From contig OZ024754.1 in assembly GCA_964016885.1 (NCBI GenBank), positions 2,542,001 to 2,606,000 on the forward strand: a stretch of 64,000 nt of DNA, read 5' to 3'. This stretch comes from Eledone cirrhosa (Eukaryota). Positions 10,094 through 12,831 of the stretch are shown here, in pieces (positions within the stretch are counted from its first letter, which is position 1; every line of letters starts with the position of its first letter). The notes beneath the pieces are model-generated. The model had not been told where the DNA came from and did no database searches. It saw nothing but the letters and a program-made list of their open reading frames with translations. A program made the translations under genes and the position numbers.

Positions 10094-11613
10094 TAGAGTT
10101 AGAAATAGAAGATACATAGAAAGTAAAGAGTGATAACAGGGAGAAGAAATTGAAGGTTCATCGTTGGCGACGACGAAGGACCAACACATGCATATGTTAG
10201 CATTTGGGTGAATATTTTATTCAAAGTTTCGTGCCTTTTTTCCTATGTCAACATCCATAGTGAAGGTGTGTATATGTACCTGATTGTGTGTGTGTAAGGA
10301 TGTGTGTGAATGTGTGTATGTGTGAGTGTTTGTGTATGTATGTGAGTGTGTTGATGTGTGTGAATGTGTGTATGAGAGAGTGTGAGACATAGCGGAAGAG
10401 AGAGATGGGGTAAGAGGGAGTGGAAAAAAGAGTAAATGAGAGAGAGAGTAAGAGAGAGAGAGAGTGAGAGAGAGGGAGAGAAACTGGGAGAGAAAGAGAA
10501 AGACAAATAGAGAGAAAGAGAGAGTCAGATAGTGAGAAAGAAAGAGAGAATGAGTCAAAGACAAATATAGAGAGAAAGAGAGAGACAGACAGACAGAAAA
10601 AATAGAGAATGTGAAAGAGAGAAATTACGAGCAAAACAGAAAGAGATAGATAGAGAGAAACAAACAGAGAGAGATTAGAAAGAAAGACAGACAGACAGAT
10701 AACCAAACAGATAGAGAGCGGAGAGCGAGGGGTGAGAGGGGGGAGCTACAATCTTCTGTTGAGGGTGTCACGAAACAGTTTATTCCCTGGTTCTTTTATG
10801 GCTGACCTGGCATTTATTTCAGCCGTGATTTATTCATAAATAATATACACCATTGGTCTGAATAATTGTGACCCCAATGACCTTCTAGTCAGCAAATACT
10901 AGATATTTCAACATCATAACATTTCGGACACTGTCAGCCAGCACTGTTCACTTCTGGTCAATGCTAGCTATTGTTGGTCATTGCTGGTCACTCGGCTGGT
11001 CAATGTCTGCACCAATGCTAGTGTTTACTGGTCAAATTATGTTAGTGAATATAGAAATGGTAATGTGGTGGTTTGGCATCGTAGGCGTCAAATGTCACAG
11101 CTCCAGTTCTTCAAATTCTTGCAAATAAACGGTAAAAATGACATTCTGTCTGTGTCTGGAGTTGTCTGTGTGTGTGTAGTGTCGTGGGTGTGTGTAGGTG
11201 TGTGTGTGTGTATGTGTGTGTATGTATACGATTGTAAGAACCTTTGTGCATATGTGTCCGTCCATATCCGTATACACACATATATATGTGTGTGTATGTA
11301 TAATATATATATCTACGTATATGTGTATATATATATATATATATATATATATATATATATATATATATATATATATATATATACGTGCATGTGTGTGTAT
11401 ATCTATCTATATATCTCTCTCTCTCTCTCTCTCTCTCTCTCATATATATATATATATATATATATATATATATATATATATTTATATATATATATATATA
11501 TATATATATATATATATATATATATATATATATATATATATATATATATATATATATATATATATATATATACAATATTAAATAAATGGAAACCATATTT
11601 ATAAAACCATATC

Positions 11614-11679
11614 TATTTCATTATATATATTTCGGGGATATCATATTAACAATATGCTATGCCTTCCTCAGACAAAATA
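11614..11679 (-). ncRNA. Type I hammerhead motif (mirror copy)
   Basis: Reverse complement of 11837-11902. Confidence 0.72.
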
Positions 11680-11836
11680 CAATATAAACAGTTTTATAGA
11701 TAAATAGATTCGACATACCGTTATAACACCGACTTCCATTTGAAGAGGTTTAAGCTGCCAGCTTAAACCTCTTCAAATGGAAGTCGGTGTTATAACGGTA
11801 TGTCGAATCTATTTATCTATAAAACTGTTTATATTG

Positions 11837-11902
11837 TATTTTGTCTGAGGAAGGCATAGCATATTGTTAATATGATATCCCCGAAATATATATAATGAAA
11901 TA
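11837..11902 (+). ncRNA. Type I hammerhead ribozyme motif
   Basis: tattttgt-CTGAGGA-aggcatagcatattgttaatatgatatcccc-GAAA-tatata-TA-atgaaata. Stem I has 8 bp including two G-U pairs. Confidence 0.75.
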
Positions 11903-12831
11903 GATATGGTTTTATAAATATGGTTTCCATTTATTTAATATTGTAAATATACTCCAAATATTTGTCGAGTGCTTTTATATCAGTTATAAATATTTACTAG
12001 TTGTAACCCAACAATTTTAAATATAACTTTCCATATATATATATATATATATATATATATATATATATATATATATATATATATATATAAACATGTGGGT
12101 ATATGCACACATATATACACATGCATACGGGCATATATATCTGGAAGTCTATATACATGTGTGAATGTATATTCATGTGTGTGTTTATGTGGGGGATATA
12201 TTTCCTTGTATATATATATATATATATATATATATATATATATATATATATATATATATATATAGTATATATAGTATATATATATATATATATATAGTAT
12301 ATATATATATATATATAGTATATATATATAGTATATATATACAGTGTATATACTCATATATATGTGTGTGTGTGTGTATTTGCTTTCATGTGAGTATTTG
12401 TGTGTATGATCATGTGTTATGCCTGTCTGTCTGTCTGTTTGTCTGCCCTCTGTAAGAGGGCGGCGAGAGGGGTGGGGGTGATGAATTGACAATGAAGTTT
12501 AACCCTATAATAACACTAAAACTACCAATCACAGTCGTTGCACATTTCTTTCGTGCCAAAATATTCCAAATGACTGAGATACCAATAAGTTTAAGTGAAA
12601 CAAAGGAAGATGCGAGTGTGGCGGATATCCTTGCTAGGAACTGTGGAATGAGTGTGAAAAGGGAAGGAAAGAAAGAACGAGGAAGGAAAGAAAGAAAGAA
12701 ACACCAAAAAAGGTGGGGGAGCGGTGGAGAAGAAATCTTTAATATATAATAATAACTTCTAACTTATGCACAAAGCAATATATTCGGGGCTGGAATATAA
12801 CATAATCATATAAATAAATATATATATATAT

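Follow-up and report, generated by a model that had tools for sequence, protein, structure and literature searches.

What a long, perfect palindrome with a hammerhead motif on each strand represents, and how its two arms came to be identical, is the question raised by this locus of Eledone cirrhosa. The palindrome lies in the window, the whole 64,000-nt stretch of DNA that was analysed (contig OZ024754.1, positions 2,542,001–2,606,000). Exact extension gave a length of 375 bp, with a left arm at 11571–11757, a single C at 11758 as spacer and a right arm at 11759–11945; no mismatch was found in the 187 pairs, so that the 187/1/187 structure described in an earlier note on this DNA stands. The reading favoured here, with a probability of about 0.7, is that the palindrome consists of the hammerhead-bearing end of a high-copy, 5′-truncated repeat together with a head-to-head, tail-less inverted copy of it, set inside a (TA)n tract. 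It would most likely be a stump-sized insertion of a Penelope-like retrotransposon (PLE), the mirror half of which was likely built during insertion.

Anatomy of the palindrome and of similar inserts

The palindrome is flanked by two putative target tracts, neither with a strand of its own: (TA)n at 11442–11570 and (AT)n at 12033–12089. The right arm (plus strand) corresponds to a 5′-truncated, pLTR-like element end, the family depth of which drops toward the centre, and the left arm (minus strand) to an inverted copy of the same end that lacks a tail and meets (TA)n 57 nt past the hammerhead GAAA. Only the right arm runs on, through an 87-nt tail (11946–12032, plus strand) that separates a short 3′-end from a long one, family copies ending at about 12030–12032 in (AT)n; when ends were measured across inserts the value for this tail was 89 nt, owing to TA microhomology. 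The one-sidedness of the tail had been noticed earlier, together with its supposed uniqueness, which does not hold: contigs cover the tail in all four sequencing runs compared (see below). Since both ends of the insertion sit in (TA)n, a target-site duplication is unreadable. There is no direct repeat, or direct pLTR pair around an ORF, at the palindrome, as expected for a truncated copy; it is therefore filed as a PLE-type end (a stump) and not as a complete element. The assembly has a gap of 200 Ns at 48543–48742, 36 kb away.

A descriptor search recognised a minimal type I hammerhead in each arm, at 11837–11902 (plus) and 11614–11679 (minus), bearing out the earlier proposal of a hammerhead on each strand. 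In the plus-strand motif, stem I is formed by 11837–11844 and 11895–11902 (8 bp), the core occupies 11845–11851, stem II (11852–11882) forms 11 of 14 pairs, GAAA lies at 11883–11886, and stem III is an 8-nt palindrome (11886–11893), with the cut predicted after A11894. In the minus-strand motif the core is at 11671–11665 and the cut is predicted after 11622. The window contained six descriptor matches at four loci, compared with a mean of 0.02 (maximum 1) in 50 shuffles; Rfam gave no hammerhead match at the palindrome, even at E up to 10. Within the family, N7 (11849) varies between G, T and A, and no other core base appears among the variable positions listed, a confinement that would be as expected of a motif under selection. 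The focal copy has an A.C pair beside the core, at a place where A-U makes up most of the depth in the family (11882 C>T, 64–82%). Hammerhead-core-like motifs that fail the descriptor also occur at 10066–10089 (minus) and 47798–47821 (plus). A microRNA precursor was considered and rejected: the Rfam matches at the centre (mir-617, 46.9/80; mir-788, 43.3/90; mir-458, 38.6/59) are sub-threshold and of the kind that any hairpin gives.

The layout of inverted arm, short spacer, arm and one-sided tail between TA-rich tracts is found four times in the window, the focal unit included. The other three belong to other families, unrelated in sequence to the focal one. The unit at 4612–5034 (plus) has arms of ∼165 bp with 7 differences in ∼166, a 9-nt spacer, an 89-nt tail, (TA)n on both sides and a descriptor-recognised hammerhead in each arm. 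At 32449–32638 (plus), also with (TA)n on both sides, a perfect 57/1/57 palindrome is followed by a 78-nt tail, and the 3′-half of a hammerhead-like motif can be discerned by eye; its centre (palindrome at 32449–32563) appears to be a native-hairpin junction, located within stem II of a hammerhead whose long stem III has a GTC triplet at its end. The unit at 58940–59127 (minus) has arms of ∼50 bp with 4 mismatches, a 14-nt spacer and a 70-nt tail on the left, and contains a hammerhead core that did not pass the descriptor. Spacers in the four palindromes thus measure 1, 1, 9 and 14 nt and tails span 70–89 nt; the two palindromes with a 1-nt spacer are perfect, while those with 9 and 14 nt are diverged. 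Two solo hammerhead inserts without an inverted arm were also observed in (TA)n, at 13352–13527 (minus) and 14072–14262 (plus), ending 58 and 50 nt past GAAA; the latter bears a loose resemblance to the focal family upstream of the core. Short ends fall 35–58 nt past GAAA in all four tail-less arms and in both solo inserts, and the long, tailed ends at 105–146 nt.

When the TA-bounded inserts of 80–800 nt (n = 50) were screened for inverted repeats scoring at least 60, four passed and none had a long spacer; the unit at 58940–59127 was found by the palindrome search and not by this screen. One insert that passed (20584–20799) was dropped, being a weak, imperfect hairpin of 48 nt with no hammerhead core. 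Two tRNA-like short repeats of ∼230 bp, more than 90% alike and inverted around a (TA)n spacer, were seen at 26420–26890 (the tRNA-like head recognised by eye); their layout differs and they are not counted with the focal class.

The relative that had been placed at 3061–3200 is real, a stretch at 3067–3191 (plus) matching 11883–12004 at 83.5% over 127 columns (E = 8e-31), but the match takes in the 3′-half of the hammerhead, the end of the arm and part of the tail, and not the tail alone. This older relative belongs to a sister subfamily; its stem II type is shown by 76 and 79 contigs with loose ends ahead of 11883. Just before it (2991–3066) lie a 16-bp inverted repeat (2996–3011/3040–3055) and a short duplication. 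The repeat may represent a very small inverted arm with its end at stem III; in the corresponding insert (2991–3286) the inverted piece stops there and not at the short site, and so is a possible exception to the pattern of ends described above.

A high-copy repeat family with the end structure of Penelope-like elements

Thirteen public sequencing runs were listed, none recorded as RNA, and ten of them hold part of the stretch. Contigs from four of the 13, of which X1 and X2 come from one sample, were aligned to 11700–12046 at 85% likeness; X4, the small-share runs X6–X10 and the RAD runs X11–X13 were left out of the comparison. Family contigs aligned in all four, numbering 2948, 3321, 605 and 17. 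Their depth is highest immediately 3′ of the hammerhead; toward the centre it decreases by a factor of several hundred, and there is a drop near 11935–11950, the fall near 11940 partly reflecting subfamily divergence. In X1 and X2 the summed depth, not to be read as a copy number, declines from ∼1e6 at the hammerhead to ∼3e3 at the centre. The gradient toward the centre, present in X1, X2 and X3, corresponds to variable 5′-truncation, to which divergence may contribute. From these alignments the unit is assigned to a very abundant, 5′-truncated repeat family. Run X5 (organism B) also has near-identical tail contigs, to which no weight is given as dating evidence or as a sign of a related species, and a scan of one metagenome for the family motif returned no loci.

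The tail-less end of the left arm appears to be a site shared by the family. At 11946, the left-arm junction letter and first (TA)n position, T replaces A in 38, 32, 22 and 37% of the depth in the four runs, part of which could be ordinary substitution, and one X5 contig enters (TA)n at 11951. At the opposite end of the arm, what preceded the right arm in the parental sequence can be read from a loose end behind 11750 in two contigs of run X1, on which the parental centre rests, and it already contains CTG-C-CAG. The junction at the centre of the palindrome (11755–11761) therefore lies on a native micro-palindrome, and the spacer C is parental.

No ORF for a telomerase-like RT or a GIY-YIG endonuclease was found among the window frames of at least 70 aa inspected by eye, or among the 10 frames searched in Pfam, so that membership in the PLEs rests on the structure of the ends. 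What was found of PLE features comprises a type I hammerhead in a terminal repeat, an adjacent head-to-head, inverted, 5′-truncated copy, a tail at one end and variable 5′-truncation. Endonuclease-containing PLEs are described with an inverted pLTR alongside, a tail of 31 bp that may be missing, solo pLTRs and head-to-head palindromes that were read as products of self-priming (PMC3846280, Arkhipova et al. 2013), and an inverted 5′-truncated copy with a tail of 30–40 bp is presented as general in PLEs (PMC8557442, Craig et al. 2021). As far as the sections of these two papers used here go, the focal insertion shares with theirs the inverted copy, the palindrome at the junction, the one-end tail, the hammerhead in the end repeat and a target, AT-rich or (TA)n, in which any duplication is hidden; it differs in having no ORF between repeats. 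Its tail and those of the other units in the window (70–89 nt) are about twice the 30–40 bp given in the text of PMC8557442, the figures or supplements of which may give longer ones. According to that text, Naiad and Hydra target (TA)n, a microsatellite bias is hypothesised for Neptune, and Naiads lack canonical hammerheads; the combination of TA targeting and a hammerhead would suit Neptune or Hydra, not Naiad.

The hammerheads themselves resemble the minimal type I motifs defined in metazoan PLEs (PMC4209133, Cervera and de la Pena 2014) in their conserved core, short stem I, long stem II and a palindromic stem III that needs a dimer, the A.C pair beside the core being the difference from the motifs in the part of that paper drawn on. 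The same text describes opposite-strand minimal hammerheads 100–700 bp apart in Schistosoma. The PAc Poseidon element of Anolis offers a further parallel: its protein cuts AT-rich DNA on both strands and extends them, starting at two sites between which the tail lies, and its hammerhead is protein-assisted and dispensable for insertion in vitro (PMC11167929, Frangieh et al. 2024). Two 3′-ends bounding a tail and an AT-rich target are common to both, whereas head-to-head products are not reported for PAc in the text cited, and the focal family is known from its end sequence alone. Non-LTR retrozymes (bioRxiv 10.64898/2026.07.22.740005) are likewise short, non-coding, equipped with a type I hammerhead and related to PLE ends, but those described in the sections used form tandem head-to-tail units, and the focal locus has a dispersed pair in inverted orientation, each strand of which carries a single sense hammerhead; with no tandem unit at the locus, this identity was rejected.

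Long inverted repeats, a TA at each end and the lack of an ORF would also fit a MITE or foldback DNA transposon that had terminal inverted repeats of 187 bp and used TA as its insertion site. We give this identity almost no credence, given the one-sided tail, the hammerhead, the existence of solo, non-inverted inserts, and a family depth that at the centre is several hundred times below its value at the hammerhead, from which it follows that the palindrome is not the unit that spreads. The PLE-type inverted layout and the idea of self-priming have thus been known since 2013, and the locus itself is ordinary transposon debris. The earlier note, in its reading of the palindrome, missed this standard insertion layout, although it is seen four times in the window. 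No paper devoted to such stump palindromes in cephalopods was found among open PMC papers and bioRxiv.

Reality, age and formation of the palindrome

The palindrome could be an artefact of assembly, library fold-back or polishing, with the left arm absent from the DNA or the differences between arms erased. Among the 32 contig pieces listed, beside which there were 6885 more, none bridges the exact centre with 31 letters on each side, which is neither confirmation nor evidence of absence; the best run holds 0.65 of the words, and PLE inversions are said in the text of PMC8557442 to trouble short-read assemblies. The left arm, on the other hand, halts at a shared short end in (TA)n and mirrors neither the tail nor the flank. 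Slightly different centre-crossing contigs exist in the one sample behind X1 and X2: in X1, one of 69 nt with a 7-nt gap (depth 16) and one of 90 nt with 4 changes (depth 11), and in both runs contigs changed at 11753–11754, 31 letters from the contig end (depth ∼15). These contigs suggest that inverted junctions are present in the read data and differ among copies or alleles. A joint between 11736 and 11780 (depth 2, one contig) was given no weight, as it may be a library chimera. The layout is not that of a fold-back artefact because it recurs in three other families, in two of them with diverged arms, which such an artefact could not produce. An artefact is accordingly very improbable, and the palindrome is, with high probability, real.

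With 0 differences in 187, arm divergence is below 1.6% (95% bound), against 7/166 and 4/∼50 in two neighbouring palindromes; at the 4.2% divergence of the unit at 4612–5034, the chance of finding none in 187 would be 0.0003. The earlier note had held that the insertion was very recent or that its arms had been homogenised. Recent insertion fits this bound, and 333 of the 2948 X1 contigs are at least 99% alike to the focal stretch. No private change common to both arms was seen, no other letter exceeding 91% of the family depth among the positions listed (mapping favours the reference letter); youth therefore suffices and homogenisation is not needed, the arms being identical because they would be copies of one template with little time to diverge. 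Long near-spacerless palindromes extrude cruciforms, and an older insertion might have had its arms kept identical by cruciform-driven arm-to-arm conversion acting on palindromes with a 1-nt spacer. Both such palindromes in the window are perfect and both longer-spacer ones are diverged, and three stem II mismatches are common to the two arms. Yet with four cases this association has a permutation probability of 1 in 6, and the same pattern is predicted if palindromes with short spacers are quickly lost; together with the lack of a shared private change and the existence of near-identical family contigs, tail included, this makes conversion improbable. The instability that had been expected of such a structure is tempered by the neighbours, which kept both arms at 4–8% divergence, albeit with longer spacers.

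As for the origin of the inverted arm, a PLE protein supplied in trans would cut the (TA)n tract, and one target end would prime reverse transcription from the long start site, which is the end of the tail. The cDNA would stop after ∼275 nt in the native CTG-C-CAG, where its 3′-end would fold back and copy itself. Joining of the other target end would then take place at the short start site, which lies 87 nt farther in than the long one; this would leave a tail on one side, and the second hammerhead would be a by-product. Snap-back synthesis by polymerases is generally known. Fold-back self-priming, as put forward in the earlier note, is plausible, although it had already been proposed for head-to-head Penelope palindromes in the text of PMC3846280 and two annealed cDNAs yield the same product. 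In this second scheme there is no fold-back: each target end primes one cDNA from its own start site, and the minus strands anneal at the native quasi-palindrome CTG-N-CAG and are filled in. Here 6 of 7 nt could pair, and the 1-nt spacer follows directly from a 7-nt overlap whose central position is mismatched, whereas the fold-back would start from only 2 bp and a 3-nt loop. The scheme also fits the in vitro activity described in the cited part of PMC11167929, where a protein predicted to be a dimer cuts both strands and uses two start sites to extend them. Moreover, the left arm continues beyond the best TA microhomology, that of stem III, as far as the shared short site, which argues for a defined second start or cut site. 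Independent truncations should, however, often give long, asymmetric spacers; none was present in the 50 TA-bounded inserts screened, a small sample. Spacers are 1–14 nt in four of four cases while truncation points in the family spread over more than 100 nt, and this favours a coupled event such as fold-back. If the element is a PLE, the chances of fold-back are roughly even and joining of two cDNAs, somewhat less probable, is a strong rival; over all readings, the two-cDNA origin is possible but tentative.

RNA consequences and wider meaning

The earlier note also proposed that a read-through transcript would form a hairpin masking the ribozyme. Thermodynamically this is right (−312 kcal/mol for the hairpin versus −3.0 for the hammerhead fold, which even alone is not the minimum-energy fold of the monomer). 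Read-through RNA of either strand would have its antisense arm made first and carry one sense minimal hammerhead; since a single Schistosoma motif of this kind showed no detectable cleavage according to the cited text of PMC4209133, masking is probably moot, and neither hammerhead is likely to cleave from the focal locus.

A search for host genes identified none: 10 frames gave two weak, sub-threshold Pfam matches, and three frames compared with the PDB gave nothing credible. Exon-like open frames are present at 62409–62630 (minus) and 33970–34110 (plus), neither with a credible Pfam or PDB match, and Atlas returned nothing for the former. The frame at 8174–8350 (plus) is likely a decayed DNA-transposase fragment (HTH_33 lead of 0.89 in Atlas). 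Another likely fragment of this type, at 29225–29449 (minus), resembles a mariner helix-turn-helix.

A bolder proposal, which we consider a long shot, is that the genome carries thousands of stump palindromes, produced by several active families and bearing tails of unusual length (70–90 nt), that conversion between arms keeps those with a spacer of 1 nt perfect, and that together they would form a large, continually renewed source of perfect dsRNA for ADAR and small-RNA pathways. If this were true, comparing stump centres with parental micro-palindromes would settle how PLE inversions form; the making of tandem and inverted PLE insertions is called unresolved in the cited parts of PMC8557442 and PMC11167929. 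Hairpins such as these mimic microRNA precursors and MITEs, which is a warning for annotation. Within 64 kb there are four palindromes along with two solo inserts, and the family numbers thousands of contigs; so large a natural sample allows fold-back to be told from the joining of two cDNAs by spacer length, by the position of the centre and by arm variants.
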